Shown here: positions 1 to 48,603 of the stretch, piece by piece
Numbering within the stretch: position 1 is the first letter of the stretch
Layout: every line of letters starts with the position of its first letter
Assembly (NCBI GenBank): GCA_043815505.1
Contig: JBDRIV010000004.1
Span: forward strand, 113,671-177,670
Length of the DNA: 64,000 nucleotides
Source: a bacterium
Lineage (GTDB): Bacteria; Patescibacteriota; JABMPQ01; JBDRIV01
Direction of reading: 5' to 3'
Translations under genes and position numbers: made by a program
The notes under the pieces: generated by a model
What the model saw: the letters and a program-made list of their open reading frames with translations, nothing else
Told to the model about the DNA's origin: nothing
Database searches by the model: none

Positions 1-737
1 TGGCCATATGATTTACTCCTTTTGAATGTTTTTTGGTTCGCCAGTCCGCCAAGATTGGCGGGTTGAATTTCAGTCAATGCTAAAGTTTACCCGATCTCCT
101 AAAACGTCTAATTTACCCATTTCCTTTTTCTAAGGCTTGTAGTATCAGTTGTTTGGACATGTAGCGGTTATAATATACACAACATACGAGTCCAGAACAA
201 AGCTACATATACCCCATTTATCCGAGTAAATTACGGTTTTACTGTGGCTATCGGTTTTCCTTCAGTCATTGCTGAAACTATTGAACGAAGATGTGCAGGT
301 GTGGGTCACGCGGTATGAAAAACATGAATGTTATCAATACGCGACCCACACCTTTAATGAATTTTGAAGGAGGATAATTTATCCTAAACAGTTCTATTAC
401 AGTCAAACTAGTCCCCCTCCTTCTTTTTTTAAGTACCATCTCTTATTAAAGACATGGCGCCCCTTTCTTCCTGGTGGCACATTTTGATTATATCAGCATT
501 TATTCCGGTGATGCTGAATTGGAAGAAGCCGAGCACAATAATAAATTCATTCCTCCACAAGATGTGCCAATATTTTATTTTAACAGTTACTTTACAGCGC
601 GTTGGCACATTACATTATTGTACGCCCTTAAAAGTAACGGTGTATTGTATTACTAATGAATAATTTTGTCAAGTATTTATTCTTATATAGTTTCCTATCA
701 CTATTAAATGGCTCACAAAAGCCATTTATACACATTT

Positions 738-1979
738 TTACACAGTAATTCCGGGTGGTGGAAAGTCCTTACAGAAGCTTAATACTTCATTTTTTACCCC
801 CTTTATCGTATTCTCATTTTCCGGATCTTGCACAATTCTATCCATCCATTTAGCAATTCTTTCCATCTCTTTTTCCTTCATTCCCCGAGATGTTATAGCC
901 GGAGTACCAAGTCTAATTCCTGATGGCTTAAGTGGTGGATTCGTGTCGTAGGGAACTGTATTGGCGTTGCAAATGATGCCAGCAACTGCCAGCGCCTTGG
1001 CAGTTTTTTTACCGCTCAAACTTTTATTTGTCATATCAATTAGCAATAAATGATTATCAGTTCCACCGGTCACAAGTTCAAAACCTTTTTCCAATAATTT
1101 TTCTGCCAGCGCTTTAGCATTGGCTACAATTTGCTTGGCATATTCTTTAAATTCATCTGTCGCAGCTTCTTTCAAAGCAACCGCAATAGCAGCGGTCGTA
1201 TTATTGTGTGGTCCGCCTTGCAGTCCTGGAAAAATTGCCCTATCAATTTTTTCGGCTAATTCTTCTTTACACATTATCATGCCACCACGTGGTCCACGTA
1301 AAGTTTTATGAGTGGTGGTTGTTACAACATCAGCCACACCAACTGGTGAGGGATGAACTCCACCAGCTATTAATCCCGCAATATGAGCAATGTCAGCTAG
1401 AAGATATGCTCCAACACTATCTGCCACCTCACGAAACTTGTACCAATCAATAACTCGCGGATAAGCTGTGGCACCAGCAATAATTAGTTTTGGTTTTTCT
1501 TTTAAAACTTGATCGCGTAGAGTATCAAAATTAATAAGTTTTGTTTCTTTATCAACTGTATATTGAACCGATTCAAATATTTTAGCGGTCGCACTAACAT
1601 TCCAACCGTGAGTCAAATGTCCGCCGTGTAACAAATTCATTCCCATAATTTTATCACCCGGCTCTAAAAGTCCCATGTAAACTGCTAAATTGGCCGGACT
1701 ACCAGAATAAGGTTGTACATTTACATGTTCAGCCTTAAATAATTCTTTAGCGCGCGCAATGGCCAACTCTTCAATCTCATCAATAAATTCTTGTCCTTCA
1801 TAATATCTTTTATGAGCATAACCTTCAGAATATTTGTTGGTCAAAATAGAACCAGTTGCTTCCATCACAGCCTCGGAAGCATAATTCTCTGATGGAATCA
1901 AACGAATAACTTCTGCTTGACGCTTGTTTTCAGAATTTATTAGTTCATAAATTTTGGAGTCACTTTGTTTCAGAGACAT
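738..1979 (-). CDS. glyA: serine hydroxymethyltransferase
   Basis: 413 aa ORF; SHMT PLP-lysine region TTTTHKTLRGPRGG and overall SHMT-like sequence. Confidence 0.9.
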   Translation of the reverse strand: MSLKQSDSKIYELINSENKRQAEVIRLIPSENYASEAVMEATGSILTNKYSEGYAHKRYYEGQEFIDEIEELAIARAKELFKAEHVNVQPYSGSPANLAVYMGLLEPGDKIMGMNLLHGGHLTHGWNVSATAKIFESVQYTVDKETKLINFDTLRDQVLKEKPKLIIAGATAYPRVIDWYKFREVADSVGAYLLADIAHIAGLIAGGVHPSPVGVADVVTTTTHKTLRGPRGGMIMCKEELAEKIDRAIFPGLQGGPHNNTTAAIAVALKEAATDEFKEYAKQIVANAKALAEKLLEKGFELVTGGTDNHLLLIDMTNKSLSGKKTAKALAVAGIICNANTVPYDTNPPLKPSGIRLGTPAITSRGMKEKEMERIAKWMDRIVQDPENENTIKGVKNEVLSFCKDFPPPGITV

Positions 1980-3141
1980 ATTCTTCTTTTTCGTTTAGAA
2001 ATAAATATAGCAAGGAATAAAAAGCGGCTGGTATAAACACGTAAGCTAAATTATCGGTATAATAAACAATTATAAAACAAATGATGGCTGCCAGTATTCT
2101 ACCAAGATTTAAGCTAAGTTGAAATAGGTTGACTCCTTTCATAACGCCGTGGCGGGAAGCGTGACCATAAGCTGAAGCCATTACCGGAATACCGATAGAA
2201 TTTCTGGCGGTGCGAGAAAAAACATCTATAAAGAAAGCTTGGGGAGCAGAACGAATAAAAACTTTCACTATTAAAACCACAAAGTAAACAATTGATCCGG
2301 TTTTTAGGATATTTTTCTTTTTATCAGCTTGTTTGCCTACAGCCAACATAATTAAAACGGTAATAAGGGTTGAAAAAGCAACAATTGAGCCGAGCGCAAA
2401 AGTATCTTGTACAACTAAGTAAATAAAAACTGGCCAAAGAATACAGGTCATAAAATCCTCGGCCACGCCCATATAGCCGAGAACGCGGCGACGGTTTTCT
2501 TTTTTAAATAGGCGTTTATAAGCCTTGGTGTAACTGAATTTACTTGGTGTAAATTTTTCTTTGGTTGTAAAAATAGGAATAATGGATATAAAAAGCAAAA
2601 TTGCAACTATTACAAACAAAGTGCTAAAATTAGAAATTTTTAAGATTAATCCACCAAGAAAGGGGGCAGCGATGGTTACGGTTAACACCAAGCTTTTCAA
2701 CTTACCAATTTCTTTACCGCGCTGATCTTGACTGCCATAAAAAGCCAAATCGCCATGATAAGCTGGCCAAAATATAGTTCGAAAAAAAACCAACAAAAAC
2801 ATCGCCAACGGCAACAACCACAAATAAAATTGCAACATGTAAAGCACAATAAAATAACCAATCAGAATTGGAATTGAATAAAAAATGTTGTGTTCAAAAC
2901 CAAAATGAGCTGACATTTTAGCACCAAACGGTAACAACAAAAAATAAAAGAAAGCAACAAATCCATAAAACATTATTACTTGCAGAATAGATAATCCTAA
3001 ACTGATAAAATAAATCGGCTCAAAAAGCGAAAACATACTCCGCGCAAACTGCTGAATTATAAAAGTTAAGTACAATTCGTTTATTTCCCGACGTGCTTTA
3101 TGATCCAGATAGGAATAATGTGGTTGTGTTTCAGTTGGCAT
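1960..3141 (-). CDS. hypothetical polytopic membrane protein
   Basis: 393 aa ORF with many hydrophobic segments; no recognised motif. Confidence 0.45.
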   Translation of the reverse strand: MPTETQPHYSYLDHKARREINELYLTFIIQQFARSMFSLFEPIYFISLGLSILQVIMFYGFVAFFYFLLLPFGAKMSAHFGFEHNIFYSIPILIGYFIVLYMLQFYLWLLPLAMFLLVFFRTIFWPAYHGDLAFYGSQDQRGKEIGKLKSLVLTVTIAAPFLGGLILKISNFSTLFVIVAILLFISIIPIFTTKEKFTPSKFSYTKAYKRLFKKENRRRVLGYMGVAEDFMTCILWPVFIYLVVQDTFALGSIVAFSTLITVLIMLAVGKQADKKKNILKTGSIVYFVVLIVKVFIRSAPQAFFIDVFSRTARNSIGIPVMASAYGHASRHGVMKGVNLFQLSLNLGRILAAIICFIIVYYTDNLAYVFIPAAFYSLLYLFLNEKEEYVSETK

Positions 3142-3754
3142 TTTGTATTGCTTTTTTAATTTGCTCTAAAGTTATTTTTCCAGTGCGCACAATTTTAGGT
3201 TCTTCTGCGGTTAAATCTACAATAGTTGAATTAGGATTTTCTTCTAAATCACCCGCATCAACTAGCATTTTTATTTGTTTTAACTCAGCAAAATTTTTAG
3301 CCTTACTAATTTTATAAATTGGTTCTAAACCAGATTCATTTAAACTGGTAGAAATTAGAGGAAAGTCTATAGCGTTAAAAAGCTCATTTATAACTGGATA
3401 ATTAGAAATTCTTATCGCCAGTGTTTTATTCATACCTAAATAAGTGGGACAAGAATCCTTTTTCTTTAGAATAACAGATAAACCATCATTCGGAAATGCT
3501 CTTAAAATTGCTTTAGCTTCGTCATTCATTTCAACAATTTCACTTGCCATGGTTTTGTCTTTTACTAAAACGAGAAAAGATTTACTCTTTTCTCTTTGCT
3601 TTATTTGTTCTATTTCCTCTACCAAATCCTTTTTATAAATGGAACAAGAAAGTCCATATGAAGTTTCGGTAGGTAACACCACAACATAATTTTCTAAAGC
3701 TGTGGCAATTAATTCTTTATTTTTAGGCAAATTTGAGGCTAAAATATGTTGCAT
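3131..3754 (-). CDS. tsaC: L-threonylcarbamoyladenylate synthase (Sua5/YrdC/YwlC family)
   Basis: 207 aa; YrdC-like LPTETSYGL motif. Confidence 0.7.
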   Translation of the reverse strand: MQHILASNLPKNKELIATALENYVVVLPTETSYGLSCSIYKKDLVEEIEQIKQREKSKSFLVLVKDKTMASEIVEMNDEAKAILRAFPNDGLSVILKKKDSCPTYLGMNKTLAIRISNYPVINELFNAIDFPLISTSLNESGLEPIYKISKAKNFAELKQIKMLVDAGDLEENPNSTIVDLTAEEPKIVRTGKITLEQIKKAIQNAN

Positions 3755-3835
3755 AGAAATCTTAAACTATTGTGCGACGCGTTAGATTTTTAGTAAATTG
3801 TGCGACACCTCCCCATCATTACACAAAAAAACAGT

Positions 3836-4621
3836 TTAGTTTTTCTTTTCTCTGGCTGCTTGTAACTGTTCTGGTGTATTTACACCATGCCATTCAGCTA
3901 AGTTTTCCAATTTATAAGCAATTACTCTTTCTCTATTCTCTTCTAGGGCCAGTTTAATCAAATCTGGTGCAATTAATTCACCCTTGCCAGTTGTTGAAGG
4001 TTGAAGTTTGGTTATGGAAGCTGCAAGCCATTTTTTATTAAATAAATAGAAACCGGCATTTATTTCTGTGAATTTCCACAAATCCTCTGTCATTGATTCT
4101 TTCTCCACAATTTGTAACACTTTGCCATCATCATCCCGAATCACGCGACCAATGTCACGTGTTTCCGGATACTCAACGGTAATAAAACTTAATAAAGCAT
4201 TATTTTTAATATGGCAATCAATAAAATTAGCGATCGTTTTTTTCTGGTAAAAAGCAGAGTCATCACCTTGAAGGGCGAGTACGTATTCTGACTTGTCAGA
4301 AACTTCTGCTAATCCACAACCAATTGCGTGTCCAGTACCAAGCTGTTCTTCTTGAACAGCATATTTAACGCGATCACCAAAATAATCTTGAATCATGGCT
4401 CTTTTATAACCAACAACAAGAATTTTCTCTAAGATCTCCAGTGATTCTAAAAGTTCCACCGAATATTCCACCATGGGTTTTCCGTTTAATTCCATTAAAA
4501 CTTTAGGAATTTCGGCTGGCTGACCATTATTAATTCTGGTGCCTTTGCCGGCAGCTAAAACTACGGCTGAAATGTTTGTATATTTTGACATAATAAAATA
4601 GAGCCTTAATAGTTTGCTCAA
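3836..4621 (-). CDS. sugar-phosphate nucleotidyltransferase
   Basis: AVVLAAGKGTRI nucleotidyltransferase glycine-rich loop near the N-terminus; true start may be the internal Met (MSKYTNIS...). Confidence 0.65.
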   Translation of the reverse strand: MSKLLRLYFIMSKYTNISAVVLAAGKGTRINNGQPAEIPKVLMELNGKPMVEYSVELLESLEILEKILVVGYKRAMIQDYFGDRVKYAVQEEQLGTGHAIGCGLAEVSDKSEYVLALQGDDSAFYQKKTIANFIDCHIKNNALLSFITVEYPETRDIGRVIRDDDGKVLQIVEKESMTEDLWKFTEINAGFYLFNKKWLAASITKLQPSTTGKGELIAPDLIKLALEENRERVIAYKLENLAEWHGVNTPEQLQAAREKKN

Positions 4622-4624
4622 ATA

Positions 4625-7507
4625 CTATTGTACCACAAAATTAAGAATTTTACCCGGTACAAATATGGTTTTAATAATCTTTTTATCCGCAAGACTTTTC
4701 TTAACCTTATCGTCGTTTTCAGCCAGTTTTATAATTTCTTTTTCCGCAGTATCTTTTTTAACTTGCAAAGTTGCTTTTAATTTGCCGTTAACTTGAATAA
4801 CAATTTCAACTTCTTCTTCTCTAACTACTTTTTTATCATACTGAGGCCATTGTGATGCGGTAATATCAGTTTTTTCCATTTGTGACCAGAGCTCAGAAGT
4901 AATGTGTGGAGCAAAAGGAAATAGAATTTGCAAAAATCTTTTTAGTTGATCATGAGAAACCGACTTAGAATTTTCAAATTCGCGAGCCAGAATCATCATT
5001 TTAGAAATGGCAGTATTGAATTTTAACGCTTCAATATCATCGGTAACTTTTTTAATGGTTTGTTGTAAAAGTTTTTCAATCTCACTTGAACCTTTAGTGT
5101 TGTCAGCAATAATTCTTTCCGAAATTTTCCAAATGCGCTCAACAAATCGTCTCACACCAACAATTCCTTTAGTGCTCCATGGTTTAGAATCTTCCAAAGG
5201 ACCCATAAACATTTCGAACATGCGCATAGCATCAGCGCCATATTCCGCTATTACATCGTCAGGATTTATAACATTGCCCCAACGTTTACTCATTTTACGC
5301 GAATCTTCTGCCAAAATAATTCCTTGATTGCGAATCTTTATAAATGGTTCATCAAAATCTAAGAATTTTAGGTCACGCAAGGCTTTGGTAATAAAGCGAG
5401 CATAAATAAGATGACCAACTGCATGTTCCATACCACCAACATATAAATCAACCGGCAGGAAGAATTTGGCCTTATCTTTGCCAAAAGGCTCTTTATCGTT
5501 TTTTGGATCCAGGAAGCGCAAGAAGTACCAAGAGGAACAAACAAAAGTATCTAGCGTGTCATTTTCTCGTCTGGCTTTGCCAGAACATTTTGGGCATTTT
5601 ACATCATGGAAGGTTTTGGAACTTTTAAGTGGGGACTCGCCAGTTGGTTTAAAATCAACATCTTCGGGAAGTTTAATGGGTAAATCTTTTTCTGGGACGG
5701 GAACTTCACCGCATTTATCACAATAAACAATGGGAATGGGTGCACCCCAATATCGCTGGCGGGAAACCAACCAATCACGAATTTTATATTGAACCTGTTT
5801 TTTGCCTTTAACAAATTTAGTAATTTTTTCTTTAGCAGTTTCTGAATCCAGTCCGTTAAATTGGCCTGAATTAATCATAACACCTTTGCCAGAATAAACT
5901 TCGGTTTTATTGTTCATTCGATCCAACCAAATATCCATCTCACTATGAGTCATGTTATCAACTGTTAGTTTGGAAATATCTTGCCAAACATAATCATGAA
6001 TTTCTTTTTCTTCTGCTGATATTTCATCTTTTTCATCATTATCTAAATCTAAACTAACAAGACTTGTGTAAGCAATTCTGTTTTCCTTTTTATGATTAGC
6101 ATAATAGTTTGCTTTTACCTGACCACCAAGCACTTTAGCATTTTTAAAGTTTTTATAACCCGTTTCTTCTTTCACTTCTCGCATAGCGGCCTCAATTAAA
6201 CTTTCATCATCATCAACACCGCCCATCGGAAAGGTTGTCCAAGGAAACTTTTTCCATTTCAATATTAGAACCTTGTTGTTCTTTGGATTACGAACCAAAA
6301 CATGAATAATCTTTCTAACAACTTCTTTTTTATCAGGTTGGGGAGGATTTTTTTCATCCGTTCTTTCTGGAATAACAACTTCTTCAATTGGTAAATTATA
6401 TTTCTTAGCAAACTCATTATCGCGCTGATCATGAGCTGGGACGGCCATTATAGAACCTGTGCCGTAATCAAGTAGAACGTAATCGGCCACCCAAATTGGT
6501 ATCTCTTTTTTAGTGGCGGGATTTATGGCAGAAATTCCTTTTATTTCCACACCAGTTTTTTCTTTGGCTAAATCGGTTCGTTCCAATTTATTTTTCTTTT
6601 GCGCCTGCTTAATATATTCTTCAACTTCTGACCAGTTAGAAATTTCATTTTTTAAATCTTGCAAAACTTTGTGTTCTGGCGCAATAACCATGTAAGTAGC
6701 GCCAAAAAGAGTGTCTGGACGCGTTGTAAACACCTCTAAAGCCTTATTTTTGGCTGTAAGAGCGAATTTTATGCTCGCACCCTCAGATTTACCAATCCAG
6801 TTCTTTTGCGTTGTTTTAAGCGATTCTGACCAATCTAAATCATCAATTTTTTCTAATATTTCCTCAACATAAGCAGTTTGTTTAAAAAACCACTGTTCCA
6901 ATTCTTTTTGAATAACTTCTGCACCACAACGTTCACATTTACCATCAATAACTTGCTCGTTAGCCAAAACAGTTTTACAGTCATCACACCAATTTACTGG
7001 CGCTGATTTTTTATAAGCCAAACCTTTTTTATATAATTGCAAAAATAACCACTGCGTCCATTTATAAAATTTAGGATCAGAAGTATTTATTTCGCGATCC
7101 CAATCATAAGATAAACCAATGGCCTTAATTTGTTTTTTGAAGTTGGCAATATTAATTTCAGTTTTTTTGGCTGGATGTGTTCCAGTTTTTATAGCAAAGT
7201 TTTCTGCTGGCAATCCAAAAGAATCCCAACCCATGGGATGTAAAACTTCAAAACCATTTAATCTTTTGTGATGTGAGATAATATCGGTGGCTGTATATCC
7301 TTCTGGATGTCCAACGTGTAATCCATCTCCTGATGGATATGGAAACATGTCTAAGCAATAGAATTTTTTCTTATCGGTGGGGAAGTCAGTTGAAAAAGTT
7401 TTTTCCTCTTCCCATTTCTTTTGCCATTTTGATTCAATTTTTTGATGGTTATATTCGTACATATCAGATGTTAAATACCCTCTTAGCATTGTGCGACGCA
7501 TGGGCAA
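4625..7507 (-). CDS. leuS: leucyl-tRNA synthetase
   Basis: 960 aa class I aaRS; HVGHPEGY (HIGH) and KMSKRWGN (KMSKS) motifs; start is TTG at 7507 or ATG at 7501. Confidence 0.9.
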   Translation of the reverse strand: MPMRRTMLRGYLTSDMYEYNHQKIESKWQKKWEEEKTFSTDFPTDKKKFYCLDMFPYPSGDGLHVGHPEGYTATDIISHHKRLNGFEVLHPMGWDSFGLPAENFAIKTGTHPAKKTEINIANFKKQIKAIGLSYDWDREINTSDPKFYKWTQWLFLQLYKKGLAYKKSAPVNWCDDCKTVLANEQVIDGKCERCGAEVIQKELEQWFFKQTAYVEEILEKIDDLDWSESLKTTQKNWIGKSEGASIKFALTAKNKALEVFTTRPDTLFGATYMVIAPEHKVLQDLKNEISNWSEVEEYIKQAQKKNKLERTDLAKEKTGVEIKGISAINPATKKEIPIWVADYVLLDYGTGSIMAVPAHDQRDNEFAKKYNLPIEEVVIPERTDEKNPPQPDKKEVVRKIIHVLVRNPKNNKVLILKWKKFPWTTFPMGGVDDDESLIEAAMREVKEETGYKNFKNAKVLGGQVKANYYANHKKENRIAYTSLVSLDLDNDEKDEISAEEKEIHDYVWQDISKLTVDNMTHSEMDIWLDRMNNKTEVYSGKGVMINSGQFNGLDSETAKEKITKFVKGKKQVQYKIRDWLVSRQRYWGAPIPIVYCDKCGEVPVPEKDLPIKLPEDVDFKPTGESPLKSSKTFHDVKCPKCSGKARRENDTLDTFVCSSWYFLRFLDPKNDKEPFGKDKAKFFLPVDLYVGGMEHAVGHLIYARFITKALRDLKFLDFDEPFIKIRNQGIILAEDSRKMSKRWGNVINPDDVIAEYGADAMRMFEMFMGPLEDSKPWSTKGIVGVRRFVERIWKISERIIADNTKGSSEIEKLLQQTIKKVTDDIEALKFNTAISKMMILAREFENSKSVSHDQLKRFLQILFPFAPHITSELWSQMEKTDITASQWPQYDKKVVREEEVEIVIQVNGKLKATLQVKKDTAEKEIIKLAENDDKVKKSLADKKIIKTIFVPGKILNFVVQ

Positions 7508-20983: not shown

Positions 20984-21658
20984 TTAAGTCCAAAGAACTC
21001 TAGTTACTTTCGAGGACGGACGCAGGATTTTGCTGGCGCTCCCGTCGTCATGGTCGACCCAGGAGCAGCCCCAGTCCCAGGAACCATCGCCAAACCGACA
21101 GAGGTAAAGAACGTTGCGACCGCCGTCGGGGTTGCGGAGAATGGCACCCCAGAACGACAGGAACTTGATGCCCTTCGTGTCATACAGCCACTTGAGGGTC
21201 TTATGACCCTTCTCCTGCCACAGCGCCATGAAGTCTTGCTCATCGAGCTGGACATCTTCGGGAACTGCCTTGATGCGCTGAAGACGTTCCTTTCCGTTGA
21301 TGTAGGATTCACCTTCGAGATAGTCCTTATTGACAATCCTTCCAGCATCCAGATTGCCACTTTCGCGCTTTCCCACTCGCTCGATGATGCTCCAGCCTTT
21401 GCCCAGGAACTGTTCGGGGTTGAAGAGCTGGCGCTCGAGCAGATGAGGCTCGGTGGCACGCAGGTGAGCTTCCACGCGAGTACGCAGGTCGGCGAGGGTG
21501 TTTTCGGCGATTTCTGCTCCCTGTGCTTCGATCACCTGCTGGCTCGCCTCTCTTGGCAGATCGCTTTTCCTCCCCTTTGCCACGATGACATCGGCGAGTT
21601 TTGTCAGCTGTCCACCAGTGATAGTTTCTGCGGATGGGGACACGGTGTCTTTACCCAT
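20984..21658 (-). CDS. hypothetical protein in a high-GC island (about 224 aa)
   Basis: About 58-60% GC against about 33% genome; strong SD (AAGGAGG, 8-nt spacer) before ATG at 21658; no recognisable domain. Confidence 0.6.
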   Translation of the reverse strand: MGKDTVSPSAETITGGQLTKLADVIVAKGRKSDLPREASQQVIEAQGAEIAENTLADLRTRVEAHLRATEPHLLERQLFNPEQFLGKGWSIIERVGKRESGNLDAGRIVNKDYLEGESYINGKERLQRIKAVPEDVQLDEQDFMALWQEKGHKTLKWLYDTKGIKFLSFWGAILRNPDGGRNVLYLCRFGDGSWDWGCSWVDHDDGSASKILRPSSKVTRVLWT

Positions 21659-21785
21659 GGCGACATCCTCCTTATGTTGTATAGTACACGTCCTAGAACG
21701 CACAGAGCCTATCTCTGCACATTACTAAGACTGTGTATTATATATTATTATATCTTTTTTTCAACCATTTTCAGGAAAATATCCC

Positions 21786-34534: not shown

Positions 34535-35502
34535 GCGATAAACTTCTAGACATCGTAATAATAACTTATAACTCACAAAGTGATATTTCTAATCTATTGG
34601 ATTCTTTGCGCTTACAAACTTGGCGTGATTTTTCTATTACCGTAATTGATAATTTTTCCCAAGATAAAACTCGTGGGATCATAAAAAAGAACTATCCGGA
34701 AGTTACACTTATTAAAAACAATGAAAATAATTATTTTTCTCCAGCTTGTAATCAGGGTTTGAAAAATACTTCCGCGCAATATGTTTTATATTGCAATCCT
34801 GACATGGTAATTGATAAAAATGCTTTGCAAGAATTTTACAATTATTTTAAAACTCATCCTAAATTTGGATCACTTGGTGGCAAGATATATCAATTATCAA
34901 TGTGTAAAAACAAAACTGAAATGCTTGATTCAGCTAGTATTAAAATACTTTCCAGTCTACAAGCCATAGATCGCGGATATAATGAAAAAGATTCTGGGCA
35001 ATTTGAAAATGTGGAACAGGTATTTGGTCACTCTGGTGCTTTTGTGTTGTATAATCGTAAAGCTTTAAATGATATTGCCATTAACGGAGAAGTTTTTGAC
35101 AACGACTTCAAAATGTACAAAGAAGATGTTGATGTTGCCTATCGTTTAAATCTACGTGGTTGGAAAAATTTCTATTTGCCGCGCGTTTTTGCTTGGCATT
35201 GTCGTTCTATAAATGCCAAACAAAATAGAAAAAGTCGTTCCGTTTTAATTAGGCGCTTGAGTTATACCAATCATATTCTCACAATTTTCAAAAATATTCC
35301 TTGTGGAATTTTTATGAAACATTTTTTGCCCTTTTTTTGGTACGAAATAAAAAAGAAGGTTTATATTCTTATTTTAGATTGGCCAGTTGTGCCGGCTTTA
35401 TTTGCCATAGTTCCTGGATTTTTCCGTATGATAAAAAAACGCCGCCAAATGCCGCGCCGTGTAATTAATAATTCAGATTTAGAAAAGATTATTTTCGGAT
35501 AG
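34531..35502 (+). CDS. glycosyltransferase family 2
   Basis: IVIITYNSQ...VIDNFSQD; 4-nt overlap with the upstream GT2 gene. Confidence 0.75.
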   Translation: MSDKLLDIVIITYNSQSDISNLLDSLRLQTWRDFSITVIDNFSQDKTRGIIKKNYPEVTLIKNNENNYFSPACNQGLKNTSAQYVLYCNPDMVIDKNALQEFYNYFKTHPKFGSLGGKIYQLSMCKNKTEMLDSASIKILSSLQAIDRGYNEKDSGQFENVEQVFGHSGAFVLYNRKALNDIAINGEVFDNDFKMYKEDVDVAYRLNLRGWKNFYLPRVFAWHCRSINAKQNRKSRSVLIRRLSYTNHILTIFKNIPCGIFMKHFLPFFWYEIKKKVYILILDWPVVPALFAIVPGFFRMIKKRRQMPRRVINNSDLEKIIFG

Positions 35503-35560
35503 TAATTTAGCATTACTATTTTCCATAGCGGAAACGATTTGAAAATATATTTAATTTAAA

Positions 35561-35625: not shown

Positions 35626-35653
35626 CGTAGCAATTTTATAGTTTACAATTTGA

Positions 35654-36361
35654 TTATTTTCGGATAGTTGCAAAACTTAAATTTTTAGGACATTTTGTCA
35701 GGCACCTACTGCCTTTTTTTGTGACCAAATAATCATCTTCTATTCTCACTCCACCAAAATCCTTAATGTAAATACCCGGTTCAATGGTAATTACATCTCC
35801 AACTTTTAAACGTTCAAACTTTTTAGCTTTGCGGGATAGAAAAGGACGTTCGTGAATTTGTCTTCCTACTCCGTGTCCGAGACCATGATTAAAATATTCT
35901 AAATAGTTTTTCTTTTTCAAATTAGCGCAAGCGATTTCATAAAGTTTTTTTGCTCCCCGACCAGATTTTATTTCCCCCGCTGCCAGCTTTTGCGTTTGTA
36001 AAACTAGATTATAAATTTCTTTTTGTTTTTTTGTAGGATTTCCCATAATAAAAGTTCTGGTAATATCTGAGTGCCAGCCAAAATATTTCGCACCAAAATC
36101 TATAAACACCACATCCCCTTTTTTTAATTTTGTTGAATTTGGTTTATGATGAGGATTAATTCCGTTTTTTCCGGTAGCTACTAAAATTGGAAAAGCTAAA
36201 TCATCGGTTCCCCTTTTTAAAATTTCTGCTCTAATAAAATGAGCGATTTCTATTTCTGTTCTTCCTACTCGCAAGAACTTTCTAACTAACAACATAACCT
36301 GATCAGAAATTTGACAACCTTTAGTGATATAAAAATATTTTTTCTTTAACTTCTTTGTCAT
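35654..36361 (-). CDS. map: methionine aminopeptidase type I
   Basis: 235 aa M24 peptidase with conserved metal-binding D/H/E residues. Confidence 0.85.
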   Translation of the reverse strand: MTKKLKKKYFYITKGCQISDQVMLLVRKFLRVGRTEIEIAHFIRAEILKRGTDDLAFPILVATGKNGINPHHKPNSTKLKKGDVVFIDFGAKYFGWHSDITRTFIMGNPTKKQKEIYNLVLQTQKLAAGEIKSGRGAKKLYEIACANLKKKNYLEYFNHGLGHGVGRQIHERPFLSRKAKKFERLKVGDVITIEPGIYIKDFGGVRIEDDYLVTKKGSRCLTKCPKNLSFATIRK

Positions 36362-36691: not shown

Positions 36692-37162
36692 ATGAAAATA
36701 TTAGCGAAAAATCGCAGAGCAAAATTTGATTACCACCTGAAAGAATTTTTTGAAGCAGGTATTGTTTTGACTGGTCAAGAAACAAAATCAACCAAAGGTG
36801 GAAATATTAGCTTGAAAGGAAGTTACGTGACTTTGCATCCGGTTAAAGGTAAGCCCGGCTATATGGAAGCCTTTCTCTTAAATGCTCATATTTCCCCTTA
36901 TAAACACGCGGGGGAATTACCGGATTATGACCCGGTGCGCACCAGAAAATTACTGTTGAAAAAAGCAGAAATTAGAAAATTGATCGGTAAAAAGCAGGCA
37001 GAAGGCTTGACAATAGTACCTACAAAAGTGTATACTAAGCGACGCAAAATTAAAGTTGAAATCGCCCTTGCCCGCGGTAAGAAACAATATGACAAGCGCG
37101 AAGGAATTAAGCAACGCCAAGATGATCGCGCCGCCGAACGCGAATTGCGGGGAAAGATATAA
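36692..37162 (+). CDS. smpB: SsrA-binding protein
   Basis: 156 aa with SmpB-like sequence; immediately upstream of the tmRNA locus. Confidence 0.9.
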   Translation: MKILAKNRRAKFDYHLKEFFEAGIVLTGQETKSTKGGNISLKGSYVTLHPVKGKPGYMEAFLLNAHISPYKHAGELPDYDPVRTRKLLLKKAEIRKLIGKKQAEGLTIVPTKVYTKRRKIKVEIALARGKKQYDKREGIKQRQDDRAAERELRGKI

Positions 37163-37163
37163 T

Positions 37164-37628
37164 ATGTATAAAAAAGAAGATTTTTTTCAAGTTATAGGCC
37201 ATGTAAGTGTTTTTTTCTCAACATTAGATGTTTTAACCTCAATTCTAATTAGTGAATTAGTTAAGAAATCAGTAGCCAACAAACCAAAATATGATGATAC
37301 TTTAGGTATAAAATTCCGTTTTTTGAAAGGTTTAAATAATGAAGATGTAAATAGTGTTAAAACTTTAAAAAAGTTAAACGGGTTAATTGATGAAGCAATT
37401 AAGATAAGCGATGAAAGAAATAGATATATTCACGACCTATGGGTATTTGATGATAAAAATATAAGAAAAGGATATATTGATCGGTTGCGCATGAAAGGAA
37501 CCAATAAAATAGGATTTGAAAAAGAAGTTTCAACGCTATCAATTAATGATTTATACGTGTTTCTGAAAGGAATTGGTAATATGCAAGAATCGATTGGTAA
37601 GATGATAAAGAATAAGGGTAATATATAA
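37164..37628 (+). CDS. hypothetical protein coupled to smpB
   Basis: ATG overlaps the smpB stop (TAATATG); 154 aa, AT-rich, no recognised motif. Confidence 0.45.
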   Translation: MYKKEDFFQVIGHVSVFFSTLDVLTSILISELVKKSVANKPKYDDTLGIKFRFLKGLNNEDVNSVKTLKKLNGLIDEAIKISDERNRYIHDLWVFDDKNIRKGYIDRLRMKGTNKIGFEKEVSTLSINDLYVFLKGIGNMQESIGKMIKNKGNI

Positions 37629-37912
37629 TATTTTTAGTAAGTAGTATGGTTAAACCGACACTTAAAACTTCATATAAGGATTTAGTATTATGGATTAATG
37701 GTAGTAATGGTTCATCTTTTCCCCACAGTATGATAAAGCAAAAGCTGTTTTAGATGCTAAAATAGCAATTCAACAAACTGAACAAACTAAACAATTAAAA
37801 TTTGCAACTTGGATACTTGCTTTTGCAATAATTGGACTTCTAATCGCAAATATTGTATTAATAATAGTAACTTTGTGCCATTAGCTATATGCTATTGGCC
37901 ATAGGCCAATAC

Positions 37913-38308
37913 GGGGATGCACGGCTTCGATAGTTTTGTTCCCTAAGAATTTGCAAACCGAGCTGTTATCTCGTAAATCTAACACCTGAACACGTGCAAA
38001 CACTGTTCAAAGAATGAAAGACAAAGTTGTTAGCTTTGCTCGCAGCCTTACGCCTTCATTCGCTCCTGTAGTTGCTTAATTAAGTAACTACCATCGCACT
38101 CACCTGCCTGAGGGGGAGGTTCGCGGTGTCATTTATCAGGCTTAGATTCTAAATGCTAATCATCCATTTATAATCGACATCTCTTGATGATTATGATTTA
38201 TTCGCTTTTGTCTATTTTTATGAATAAATCGAGAACTCCAAATAGACTATGTTTGTAGAAGGTTTTTAGATACGATGCTAGACGTGGGTTCGATTCCCAC
38301 CATCTCCA
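37913..38308 (+). ncRNA. ssrA: tmRNA (ssrA)
   Basis: 5' GGGGAUGCACGGCUUCGAUAG tRNA-like start; 3' T-arm GUGGGUUCGAUUCCCAC plus acceptor strand CAUCUCC complementary to the 5' GGGGAUG; candidate tag ORF ending ...PVVA-UAA; located just after smpB. Confidence 0.75.
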
Positions 38309-38310
38309 TA

Positions 38311-38340
38311 AAAGAATCCCTTAAGAAAGGGATTTTTTTA
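38311..38340 (+). terminator. intrinsic terminator after ssrA
   Basis: AAAGAATCCC-TTAAG-AAAGGGATTTTTTT hairpin plus T-run. Confidence 0.55.
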
Positions 38341-38517
38341 TTAACTACAATTCAAACGAGGCGCGCAGTGAACGAAGTGAACGAGCACGCGTTTGAATTA
38401 AGAGGAAGAATAATATGCAAGCTGTAGCAAATAAATTTATTTGTTTGCGAAAGCTGGAGAATTATTCTGACGAGAGGCCGGACCAAAAAAGATTTACGTC
38501 AGTAAATCTATTTTTGG

Positions 38518-38535
38518 CGATTCCCACCATCTCCA
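38518..38535 (+). repeat. 18-bp direct repeat of the tmRNA 3' end (att-like)
   Basis: CGATTCCCACCATCTCCA is identical to 38291-38308. Confidence 0.6.
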
Positions 38536-38795
38536 CCAAAAATATTCATGCTTTTGTATGGATTTTTTTGATTGAGATGCATGAACATTTATTCTTTAAG
38601 GATTTGCTTTAATAAATATAATAGTATAATTTAATATTAATGTGGGGAAACGGCGTGTTCCTACCTAACAAACTCGTTAATGATCTCACCAAATATGTTT
38701 AAATACTGCTTGTTTACCTTCTCTAGGTAAACACCAACTATGTCCCATAACTGTCTCAGAAACAGTTTAACACGCCGTTTCTCCGTTTCTCTTGA

Positions 38796-38893
38796 CCCAG
38801 CCCCAGTTTTATAGAACTCGTGGTTTTGAAAATTATTAATGCTAATGAATTTCTGAAATTCAAGTACTTGAATTTAGCAAAACTGGAGCTGGG
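38796..38893. repeat. long-loop member of the CCCAGCYCCAGTTTT/AAAACTGGRGCTGGG hairpin family
   Basis: 15-bp arms with one mismatch and a loop of about 68 nt; related copies at 55346-55440, 48298-48328 and 10731-10769. Confidence 0.5.
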
Positions 38894-38921
38894 TTGACAG
38901 ATTTTACAGTTTAAGTATAAT
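38894..38921 (+). promoter_or_regulatory. consensus sigma70-type promoter TTGACA-N16-TATAAT
   Basis: Exact hexamers at 38894-38899 and 38916-38921. Confidence 0.45.
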
Positions 38922-38929
38922 TTCTAATG

Positions 38930-39450
38930 CCATCAATCGGCACTTGATCATTTGATAATATGGGGATACGGGGGCGTAGACGAGAGAGTTTGTTTGCATG
39001 TAACTTAGTGGAAATTCGACGAACAGCACCATTGGCGCCCGCACATCGGTTAACGCGGTTTCGCCAGACTTGGTGCTACGTGGTTTATCGCCATCGACGC
39101 AAGACGCGGATTAACTATCCGCGCATCCGCCGGACAGCCCAGCGAGCCTTGCTCGCTGACGTTATCAACATTTTCACGCAGGTGTAGATCTTATTGGAAG
39201 ACCTTCGTCCTCGCAAAATAAAAACGCGACTCTATCGAATGTCTGCTATCAGCACCATAAACACCATGCAATCCAGTATGGCTTTATGGATCGTTGATCC
39301 TTGACTGCATCTAACCTGCGTCTTCGTGCTCTCTCTGATGCGCCTCCGTCCCCTACCCATACCCAACCAGAGGAGAATTTCTACCCCCTTCCCCTCTGCC
39401 CACCGGGGCCACAGCAAATCTTCATCGAGATGCTGTGGTCCCATTTTTTT
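38930..39450 (+). ncRNA. candidate structured ncRNA (about 520 nt)
   Basis: Promoter-to-terminator unit with no credible ORF, GC-rich with many local hairpins; terminator GGGCCACAGCA...UGCUGUGGUCCC plus U7 at about 39405-39450. Confidence 0.3.
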
Positions 39451-39499
39451 ATTAAATATTTGACAAAATATTTCTTGATATTATACTAATAAAGCTCTT

Positions 39500-39830
39500 T
39501 AGATATAAATATGTGGTGTGGTGCGGGGTGGCTGATAAGCTGATACGGTTGAGTGCTGTGTAAAAATCGTAATGGATATCCTTATTGGGGTCACGGCTAG
39601 ATTCCCATGATGTCCGAGGAACAGGAGTAAACCTGTACACACGTGCTGTGTCGCAGCATCGCGCAAAGTCAGTTAGTTCTGCATGCGCAGGCCCGCCAAG
39701 ATCAGTACCGAAAGGGAAAAATCGTTGGCCAATAATTCTGGGCACCATCTCGCCGAAATATCGCTTTTTCATCCCCCCGCACCCACCCTTTTTCAAGGCA
39801 GATTTGGACCAAGTCCTTTCTGCCTTTTCT
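39500..39830 (+). ncRNA. candidate structured ncRNA (about 330 nt)
   Basis: TTGACA-N16-TATACT promoter at 39461-39488; 5' GGTGCGGGG pairs with 3' CCCCGCACC; terminator AAGGCAGA...TCTGCCTT plus U-run at about 39787-39830. Confidence 0.25.
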
Positions 39831-39840
39831 TTTTCCTTGA

Positions 39841-39937
39841 CCCAGCAGCACAAGTATCTACACAAATATTAAGTATTTAAATTATTTATACTATTCTATT
39901 ATATCTGAAATAATAAAATGGAATTTGTACTACCGGG
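39841..39937. promoter_or_regulatory. GTAC-core cassette upstream of infC
   Basis: Degenerate distal CCCAGCAGCACAAGTA; proximal AATTTGTACTACCGGG (39922-39937), 57 nt before the infC TTG start. Confidence 0.4.
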
Positions 39938-39993
39938 TTGACCAAATGGTCATTTTTTTGTATTTTAAAGGTACTAACTACTAATTTTACATA

Positions 39994-40503
39994 TTGAAAA
40001 AACGTACCCGCATCAACGACCAAATCAGAGTTCCTCGTGTTAAAGTAATCGACGAAAACGGCGAGATGATTGGCGAAATAGAAACATCCGCAGCCCTACA
40101 AATGGCCAAAGAAAAAGAATTGGATTTAATAGAAGTTTCTCCTAATGCCAATCCACCAGTAACAAAGATCTTGGATTTTGGTTCATATCAGTATCGCCAG
40201 AAAAAACAAGAGCGCAAGCATAAAAGTAAACAGAAGAAATTTGAGATAAAAGGTGTCAGAATTTCGATGCGTATTAGTGACAACGATTTCAATTTTAAAG
40301 TGAAACAAGCCAATAATTTTTTAGATCAAGGACATAAAGTTAGAGTTGAATTGATTGTTAAAGGTCGTGAAAATCAGCATATTAATTTGGCTTATGATAA
40401 TATTCAGAAATTTGTTGATGCTTTGGAAGGAGAAGTTGTGATTGAACAAAAAGCTGCTAAACAGCGCTTGGGACTAGCTTGTGTGGTTGCTAGAAAAAGC
40501 TAG
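39994..40503 (+). CDS. infC: translation initiation factor IF-3
   Basis: 169 aa IF-3; non-ATG (TTG) start as usual for infC; followed by rpmI-rplT. Confidence 0.85.
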   Translation: MKKRTRINDQIRVPRVKVIDENGEMIGEIETSAALQMAKEKELDLIEVSPNANPPVTKILDFGSYQYRQKKQERKHKSKQKKFEIKGVRISMRISDNDFNFKVKQANNFLDQGHKVRVELIVKGRENQHINLAYDNIQKFVDALEGEVVIEQKAAKQRLGLACVVARKS

Positions 40504-41395: not shown

Positions 41396-42049
41396 TTAGG
41401 CGACGGCGGTTTCTTCGACGGTGGGTTCGGCCGGCTTGTCTTCCGACTTGGGGGGAAGCCACGCTTCTTCGACGATCGGCGGACGCATGTCCTCCGGCAT
41501 GTCGAACTCGTTGGTGCCGGGACGCGGGTCGTAGGCGAAGTCGACCCACAAGTAGTTGTTGAACCACTGGAACCAGGCCGATGTCTTGACGCCGATTTTC
41601 ATTCGCACCTGGTAGTCGAAGTGAGTCGGAAACAGCTCCCGCATCTCACCGAAATCAATGGCACGCTGGTAGACCTGTTGTTGCCCCCGCTTGTCGATGT
41701 AAACCAGTCGCACCTGCGACTGGACGATCCTCGAGACGCGCTCGAAGTCGGCGGCCGGTGCCCAGGCGATGGCCTGGTACTTGGCCCGATGTCCTGGGGG
41801 AGCCTCGACGATCCGCATAGGGATCACCTTCTCCAGTTCGGGGCGTGCGAAGAGCCGTTTCTTCTTCAAATCGAAGAAAAAGCCATTGCCGATGGGCTCG
41901 ATGGCTCGACCCGCCAAACGATGGACGTAGCATCCTTCGCGTCGTCCGTTGATGACGACTGTAGTGAAGAAAAACTCACTGTCGCCGATCTTGGCAACAG
42001 TACCGACCGTATTGATCGGCTTGGACTGACTCTGATATTGTCCTCTCAT
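41396..42049 (-). CDS. hypothetical protein in a high-GC island (about 217 aa)
   Basis: About 60% GC; AAGGAGG SD 7 nt before ATG at 42049; acidic Pro-rich C-terminal tail; no recognised domain. Confidence 0.6.
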   Translation of the reverse strand: MRGQYQSQSKPINTVGTVAKIGDSEFFFTTVVINGRREGCYVHRLAGRAIEPIGNGFFFDLKKKRLFARPELEKVIPMRIVEAPPGHRAKYQAIAWAPAADFERVSRIVQSQVRLVYIDKRGQQQVYQRAIDFGEMRELFPTHFDYQVRMKIGVKTSAWFQWFNNYLWVDFAYDPRPGTNEFDMPEDMRPPIVEEAWLPPKSEDKPAEPTVEETAVA

Positions 42050-42151
42050 GGCTTTTCCTCCTTGCCTTAGAGAGATTATATTATGGCGCAAAATTTTACA
42101 TGCGCCACCGAACACAAATTGAAACGAACATCATAACAACAAAAACATTGC

Positions 42152-48102: not shown

Positions 48103-48297
48103 ATTTTGGCTTTTTGAAAAAGCCAGGTGGAAAAACCTGGTTTTTTGTATAAATAATTATCATTATGGCTTTAGTCTTCCACCTTTTGGCAGCAATTTCT
48201 CCTCTACCTTTTGGCGCCAAAAGGTAGCCAAAAGCGCCTCGCGGTGGTTGATTTTTGAAGCTCACTATCAGCTCGACCTTATTAATTTCCTGAACTC

Positions 48298-48328
48298 CCC
48301 AGCTCCAGTTTTTTAAACTGGGGCTGGG
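48298..48328. repeat. short-loop member of the CCCAGCYCCAGTTTT/AAACTGGGGCTGGG hairpin family
   Basis: Near-perfect 14-bp stem with a 2-nt loop. Confidence 0.5.
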
Positions 48329-48387
48329 TCAAACAGCAGGAAATTTTGCTAACGCAAACATTCGGTCTTTGCTTGAGTCGAGCAAAC

Positions 48388-48417
48388 AAAAATCCCCACA
48401 TGCTCGGGGATTTTTTT
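48388..48417. terminator. bidirectional hairpin terminator
   Basis: AAAAATCCCC-ACATGCTC-GGGGATTTTT perfect stem flanked by an A-run and a T-run. Confidence 0.5.
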
Positions 48418-48603
48418 ACGACGACTTATACTCTTACTCATCAAGTCAAGTTAACCAACCTCACCCCAGGTTGGAAATCGTGCTATTAGCCATTAGCTCT
48501 TGGCTATTTGCCAATTATGCTCACCATAGGCTCGATAAACGACGTCGGACAAAGTTAAGTTTACCAAATTCAACTCAGATAGGATTACAAATTAAATACT
48601 CTA

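Follow-up and report, generated by a model that had tools for sequence, protein, structure and literature searches.

The locus and the duplicated end of ssrA

The DNA analysed here is a stretch of 64,000 nucleotides (hereafter the window; contig JBDRIV010000004.1 of GenBank assembly GCA_043815505.1) from a metagenome-assembled genome (MAG) of the Candidate Phyla Radiation (CPR). Our subject is the transfer-messenger RNA (tmRNA) gene, ssrA, together with a short exact duplication of its 3' end and the spacer that separates it from the next gene, infC. ARAGORN called an intact ssrA, which matches the Rfam model over its full length, carries the tag peptide ANTVQRMKDKVVSFARSLTPSFAPVVA and does not encode CCA (Table 1). 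The 18 nucleotides that close the gene, CGATTCCCACCATCTCCA, occur a second time downstream on the same strand, and the two copies are separated by 209 bp (38309-38517). Both the repeat and the length of the gap had been proposed in a first-pass annotation made from the letters alone, and they were recovered by an exact-match search, which returned no further copies; no third site was present across the window when up to three mismatches were allowed. The 18-mer is the longest exact direct repeat at a spacing of up to 2 kb in the window, the runners-up being AT-rich 14- to 17-mers, and in a shuffle control two hits were obtained in none of 100 shuffles.

Placed on the Rfam alignment, the repeat covers bases 3 to 7 of the T-loop (CGAUU), the 3' strand of the T-stem (CCCAC), the 3' strand of the acceptor stem (CAUCUCC) and the discriminator A. 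Beyond the discriminator the two copies part, with TAA following copy 1 and CCA following copy 2, a difference that the first-pass annotation had not recorded.

The 209 bp between the copies are made up of four hairpins and hold no gene. Together with the flank of copy 2, they fold as a row of hairpins with a z-score of -8.1. The terminator of ssrA and the 10-bp inverted repeat that had been claimed inside the gap are both there (Table 1). A tandem motif claimed alongside them is real as well, but its unit is an exact 9-mer, AGTGAACGA, present twice (38367-38384) in the GC-rich loop of hairpin 2 and found nowhere beyond this tandem. The dubious 65-aa open reading frame (ORF) said to run across the second repeat also exists. 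It has no Pfam, PHROG or PADLOC match, its exact sequence is absent from the protein collection and its start lies inside hairpin 3, and we judge that it is not a gene. A hairpin and a T-run are found downstream of each repeat copy, and both copies stand at positions resembling the end of a transcription unit. Nothing in the ssrA-infC spacer appears to have been annotated by NCBI, since the locus tags running from 04600 (a hypothetical protein upstream of ssrA) to 04625 (after rplT) leave room only for ssrA, infC, rpmI and rplT.

Table 1. Features of the ssrA-infC region, in window coordinates
Feature	Position	Strand	Basis
tmRNA gene ssrA	37913-38308	+	ARAGORN; RF00023, 131.9 bits
Repeat copy 1, attL-like core, followed by TAA	38291-38308	+	Sequence; Rfam alignment
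Strong intrinsic terminator of ssrA, GAATCCCTT/AAGGGATT and T7	38309-38341	+	Terminator and inverted-repeat scan, fold
Hairpin 2, 10-bp arms AATTCAAACG (38349-38358) and CGTTTGAATT (38390-38399)	38349-38399		Inverted-repeat scan, fold
Hairpin 3, 30-nt arms 77% complementary, covers the start of the 65-aa ORF	38407-38468		Inverted-repeat scan, fold
65-aa ORF crossing copy 2, judged a non-gene	38415-38612	+	ORF list
Hairpin 4, 13-nt arms AAAAAAGATTTAC/GTAAATCTATTTT, directly 5' of copy 2	38485-38514		Inverted-repeat scan, fold
Repeat copy 2 (38518-38535) and CCA (38536-38538), attR-like core	38518-38538	+	Sequence
Weak A-tract/hairpin/T7 terminator after copy 2	38539-38570	+	Repeat scan, fold
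Unit A, candidate RNA of about 150 nt, 16-bp closing stem (38644-38659/38769-38784)	38636-38800	+	Fold, z -5.25
Unit B, candidate RNA of about 500 nt, 50% GC	38894-39450	+	Promoter, fold, terminator 39405-39450
Unit C, candidate RNA of about 330 nt, 50% GC	39460-39834	+	Promoter, fold z -3.95, terminator 39795-39834

The ssrA-infC spacer in relatives

The exact SmpB of this genome is a singleton, the next best sequence being 65% identical, and the comparison therefore runs over distant loci. The order smpB-ssrA-infC(-rpmI-rplT) is kept in those relatives whose loci reach infC, and argS, where seen upstream, agrees with the window too. The spacing of ssrA and infC, which the first-pass annotation had suggested comparing, is longest in the window, with 1,685 nt versus roughly 0-660 nt in 11 measurable relative loci. 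It amounts to about 0-6 nt in L001 and L004-L006, 38 nt in L065, 150 nt in L062, 204 nt in L069, 284 nt in L002, about 410 nt in L078 (with two tRNA genes), about 517 nt in L079 (with a duplication of the ssrA 3' end and a GIY-YIG ORF) and about 660 nt in L068 (with a 133-aa ORF). L079 apart, a repeated ssrA 3' end is missing from the 11 other relative loci examined (SmpB no more than 65% identical in any of them), and therefore the duplication is not a conserved structure downstream of ssrA; such a conserved structure is what the first-pass annotation had named as the finding that would speak against integration.

The base that follows the discriminator also bears on the two copies. A C stands directly after it in all CPR relatives checked, and the full CCA is encoded in three of them (L062, L065 and L079, with SmpB 65, 63 and 60% identical to that of the window); the tag of L065 ends in PSFAPVVA, as does the tag of the window. 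Copy 1 alone has a T at this position (TAA), and copy 2 has CCA. Judging from this flanking sequence, copy 2 may be the displaced ancestral 3' end of ssrA; the point is suggestive, not decisive.

An analogous duplication in a second CPR lineage

One of the relatives, L079, is a CPR metagenome contig (Joint Genome Institute, JGI; Ga0376279_0000002) in which the 3' end of ssrA is likewise duplicated (4931-5465). Its exact repeat, AATTCCCGCCATCTCCACCAAAAAAA, is 26 nt long, with a start-to-start spacing of 147 bp, and extends at 94% identity to about 55 nt, that is, about 30 nt past the gene. The resemblance to the window lies in the smpB-ssrA-infC context, in a short gene-free spacer with hairpins (92 bp, two hairpins, z -4.3) and in the start of the repeat within the T-loop, at base 4 in L079 versus base 3 in the window. 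The two cases differ in that the repeat of L079 is longer, CCA is present on both of its copies, its spacer is unrelated to that of the window (no significant similarity) and its second copy is followed by an 86-aa GIY-YIG ORF and then by infC. That two unrelated inserts should have left boundaries differing by a single base speaks for a site-specific process and against random duplication.

A probable integration scar at the 3' end of ssrA

We consider it probable (roughly 0.6) that the two 18-mers are attL- and attR-like cores from the integration of a mobile element at the 3' end of ssrA, the interior of which has since been lost. The boundaries of the repeat are an important part of the argument, since it ends at the discriminator, beyond which no base matters for tmRNA function, and nothing would lead a random duplication to end there. 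The usual mark of an island is a regenerated tRNA or tmRNA gene (tDNA) together with a displaced piece of it; the attP of such elements measures about 250 bp, and no integration target is more enriched than the tmRNA gene (PMC4383910). In the window, the 209 bp and one core together make 227 bp, which is roughly the size of an attP region.

The event may be pictured as follows. A mobile element would have integrated site-specifically into the 3' end of ssrA, bringing its own tmRNA 3' end and its own terminator, and the incoming end, now copy 1, would have completed the gene. Copy 2 would then be the original 3' end, pushed downstream together with the CCA it encodes and a weak terminator of its own. 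The strong terminator after copy 1 was thus presumably supplied by the element, and the weak one after copy 2 is probably the former terminator of ssrA. Later, the element would have lost its recombinase and any cargo, leaving about 209 bp of hairpin-rich DNA. In an exchange of attP with attB, the original chromosome would continue with the DNA on the right side of the distal core. The empty attB would then have read ...GTGGGTT joined to CGATTCCCACCATCTCCA-CCAAAAATATTC, and the circular attP ...ATCTATTTTTGG-CGATTCCCACCATCTCCA-TAAAAGAATCCC.

Several results weigh against this reading. No recombinase or other credible match was found in the ssrA-infC spacer (38309-39993) in a six-frame Pfam scan with stops masked and E up to 1, which covers the integrase remnants that the first-pass annotation had proposed to look for downstream of ssrA, nor is any of the window's 40 largest ORFs, which are housekeeping genes or of unknown function, a tyrosine or serine recombinase. 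ORFs of at least 40 aa within 38.3-39.9 kb gave no meaningful Pfam match, and PHROG and PADLOC searches gave no recombinase remnant. A parent element was sought in exact-match scans of IMG/VR and of JGI metagenomes. The 18-mer occurs in 46 IMG/VR contigs, nearly always within a whole tmRNA or the T-arm of a tRNA-Ala, and none of these contigs has the flanks of the window, so that the search proposed for elements bounded by the same 18-mer gave neither a parent element nor an attP; an attR-type 20-mer gave only four chance hits in JGI metagenomes, all in GC-rich coding sequence. Neither an excised circular form nor a related autonomous element appeared in these scans. In addition, no close relative is present in the collections and hence there is no DNA-level comparison with an empty site; with the next SmpB only 65% identical, such a site cannot be shown. 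The perfect identity of the cores (18/18) is odd for an element old enough to have lost the rest, although a single deletion could explain it, and the two cases known are very small (147 and 227 bp), a pattern not expected of deletions with random end points. The argument from the ancestral state is weakened too, as CCA is encoded in only three of about 11 relative lineages. The claim that a new 3' end came with the element and the old one was displaced is in keeping with the CCA flank of copy 2 and stays suggestive, because three lineages alone encode the full CCA.

Taken together, the att-type footprint is the best available reading and is partly supported by circumstantial evidence. What the first-pass annotation had called the signature of integration at ssrA is supported by the boundaries, the paired terminators, the CCA flank, the relatives and L079, but not by an integrase, a parent element or attP, or a close relative. 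Between the two forms that it had offered, a deletion remnant is favoured over cargo lying further downstream.

Alternative explanations

The alternative that survives best takes the 227-bp unit for an intact miniature non-autonomous integrative element, that is, a bare attP with arm hairpins, which a recombinase provided in trans from the genome or a phage would insert and excise; it would amount to a cis-mobilizable element of very small size. Cis-mobilizable elements have been discussed for ssrA islands (PMC3146451), the two independent CPR cases are attP-sized or smaller (227 and 147 bp), the interval is unusually structured and both cores are perfect. The exact tandem 9-mer, moreover, lies about 60-76 bp from the core and might, as a speculation, be an arm-type site of a recombinase. 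Arm-type sites in the attP of lambda lie at a comparable distance from the core. We nevertheless regard such an element as unlikely, given that the 209-bp sequence has no second copy in the window, in IMG/VR, in phage or plasmid collections or in the CPR relative loci, that the L079 spacer likewise has no known second copy and no significant similarity to that of the window, that the window yielded no recombinase and that the 9-mer is absent elsewhere.

A local duplication without any mobile element, in which slippage, template switching or templated repair would have copied the 3' end of ssrA downstream in a non-site-specific manner, would account simply for the lack of recombinase and cargo and for copies that lie very near each other, and in L079 the repeat continues for about 30 nt past the end of the gene, which a plain duplication might also do. 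We hold it to be improbable, however, as there is no significant similarity outside the 18-mer, so that the structure is not a tandem duplication of the 227-bp unit, and as the boundaries lie in mid T-loop and at the discriminator, the left one recurring within one base in an independent lineage. The 209 bp also have no source elsewhere in the window.

The first-pass annotation had considered that the former cargo might be the unusual 1.3 kb downstream of the second copy. In this form, the element would be, or would once have included, the next 1.4 kb (38570-39993), which exceeds all other non-coding regions of the window in both size and GC content, and the three RNA-like units found there (Table 1) would be the cargo of this event or of an older ssrA island whose far repeat has decayed. 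The excess length of the spacer over that of the 11 relative loci fits such a view, as do weak similarities to the tmRNA 3' end in unit C (39595-39615 and 39743-39761), and ssrA is known to host tandem arrays whose boundaries have decayed (PMC3146451). Nevertheless, given its position right of copy 2 and outside the repeat-bounded interval, the stretch would predate the event in an attP x attB exchange; no significant third core copy precedes infC, and the six-frame scan gave no recombinase remnant. Native structured RNAs of an AT-rich genome would likewise be expected to have about 50% GC, and the same spacer in relatives holds unrelated small inserts (the tRNA genes, the 133-aa ORF and the GIY-YIG ORF), so it is simply permissive to insertions. 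We therefore find it very unlikely that this stretch is the cargo, although it is still lineage-specific extra DNA.

A function for the second copy seems far-fetched, be it as an alternative 3' exon or piece of the tmRNA, as the 3' end of a CCA-ended tRNA-like RNA or as a retro-copy of the CCA-tailed tmRNA. It is true that joining 38290 to 38518 gives a perfect tmRNA 3' end with encoded CCA, that an A-run follows the ACCA at the end of copy 2 and that part of copy 2 can pair with an upstream GAGAGG in the predicted fold; however, the gene is already complete with copy 1, directly after which comes a strong terminator, the interval has no group I intron or other Rfam match (E up to 10), no promoter is predicted upstream of copy 2, the T-arm around it cannot form, and a retro-copy would leave its position directly downstream of the gene unexplained. 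Finally, an assembly artefact is barely credible: the source is a MAG, and an assembler could be misled by differences between strains at an ssrA hot spot, but 18 bp is below the usual assembly k-mers and would not be expected to cause a false join, the flanks are unique, and an analogous structure is present in the independent JGI assembly of L079.

Other candidates were tried and rejected. For a tandem duplication of the ssrA 3' region, the alignment extended past the 18-mer scores 38 versus 36 for the 18-mer alone. A transposon or miniature inverted-repeat transposable element with a target-site duplication was dismissed, as the 209 bp do not end in inverted repeats and no other copy is present in the window; 18 bp is also longer than typical target-site duplications. 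An intervening sequence or group I intron in the T-loop was likewise set aside, since the gene is complete with copy 1, the terminator comes next and no intron family was matched in 38250-40050 (E up to 10).

RNA-like units downstream of the duplication

The three units between the second copy and infC (Table 1) are candidate structured RNAs, with folds taken from thermodynamic prediction alone, and are to be read as context of the scar and not as part of it. A -10-like box (38625-38630) is all that precedes unit A. The promoter of unit B is perfect, TTGACA-16-TATAAT (38894-38921), and the unit folds with a z-score of -7.41 on the + strand versus -4.24 on the - strand; the promoter of unit C reads TTGACA-16-TATACT (39460-39487). 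None of the three belongs to an Rfam family, and none has a match in phage and plasmid collections, in IMG/VR (exact pattern) or in the CPR relative loci. An ORF antisense to unit C had no match among 1.84 billion representative proteins.

The partial matches to the tmRNA 3' end in unit C, GGCTAGATTCCCATGATGTCC and CACCATCTCGCCGAAATAT, stand in the right order with about 130 nt between them; the similarity is close to what chance would give, and they might be what is left of an older attachment site. A palindromic element, TTGACCCAGCCCCAGTTT...AAACTGGAGCTGGG, is found at 38788-38901 and recurs at 48298-48335. At 48.3 kb it is a simple hairpin on the opposite strand, and at 38.8 kb a 68-nt insert, itself containing a palindrome, separates the two arms. 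The motif of its left arm, TTGACCCAGC, is also seen after unit C (39834-39846).

Other features of the locus and the window

Upstream of ssrA, the gap to smpB is about 750 bp (37163-37912) in the window versus 5-121 bp in relatives. It holds the hypothetical protein gene ABIE68_04600 (37161-37628) and possibly a small membrane ORF; homologues of ABIE68_04600 (42-56% identical) are found on short contigs, not beside ssrA. In the relatives, L067 has genes with defence-system domains (LmuB_C, AAA_23, MC3, CTD7) shortly upstream of smpB (242-4459), and L006 has a LOOT RNA (RF03000, 79.7 bits; 6015-6130) about 4 kb upstream of smpB.

Elsewhere in the window, two protein genes on the - strand (41396-42052 and 20984-21661) have 55-61% GC in a genome of about 34% GC. 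Both have an AAGGAGG ribosome-binding site and AT-rich upstream DNA, and the gene at 41.4 kb has a perfect TTGACA-17-TATAAT promoter. Neither of these GC-rich islands is related to the other, and neither has a Pfam, PHROG or PADLOC match (for the 21-kb island, Pfam was searched with the opposite-strand ORF only), and the protein from 41.4 kb, ABIE68_04625, has no homologue in a collection of 5.8 billion proteins. A 17-nt exact direct repeat, GATTATTTTCGGATAGT (35487-35503 and 35652-35668), flanks a gap of 148 bp between convergent genes for a glycosyltransferase and an M24 peptidase. The 500-bp intergenic region at 48103-48603 has GC-rich self-complementary stretches (ccaccttttggc...gccaaaaggtagccaaaagcgcc) and a terminator and may be an unannotated small RNA.

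Implications and comparison with known systems

If the integration reading is true, the tmRNA gene would be an integration hot spot also in the CPR, where genomes are small and streamlined and mobile elements are poorly mapped, and decay could shrink an element to little beyond the arms of its attachment site. Such scars would escape the standard island finders, which require an integrase. The scar also marks the ssrA-infC spacer as a variable locus and draws attention to three candidate RNAs outside annotation and family libraries; what is known of the integration mechanism is unchanged. A bolder view, which we think quite improbable, would see in the window and L079 members of a CPR class of gene-less, hairpin-rich mini-elements of attP size (about 150-230 bp) that insert into the middle of the ssrA T-loop with a recombinase acting in trans, the RNAs of the spacer being new classes left from earlier rounds.

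Among the known systems nearest to this case are the Islander-type islands and prophages at tDNAs (Williams 2002 sublocations). As in these, an intact tDNA and a cognate 3' fragment in direct orientation lie on the same replicon, and the identity block sits at a canonical sublocation and reaches the end of the gene, here from T-loop base 3 to the discriminator. The difference is that no integrase gene lies between tDNA and fragment, nor any cargo, and 209 bp is far below the size of an island, so that the Islander filters would reject the case. The ssrA-specific islands of Dehalococcoides (McMurdie et al. 2011) are kilobases long, form tandem arrays and carry a serine-recombinase (DsiB) module beside attL (PMC3146451). 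The window shares with them the mid-T-loop position of the identity block (PMC3146451), whereas it has neither the kilobase size nor a tandem array or DsiB module, and the host phylum is unrelated. Islands of this group that lack an integrase have been discussed as cis-mobilizable or fixed (PMC3146451).

Cis-mobilizable elements (CIMEs) are flanked by att sites and have no recombination or transfer genes of their own, and the same is found in the window, where two att-like cores enclose DNA without a recombinase. The CIMEs described are kilobases long and were recognised via related autonomous elements, whereas the window has no known partner element. The event is most likely of a type that is already known, met here in a little-studied bacterial lineage, and what is particular to the case are small twists, namely an attP-sized interval without genes, a second independent CPR example and unannotated RNA-like units in the immediate neighbourhood.

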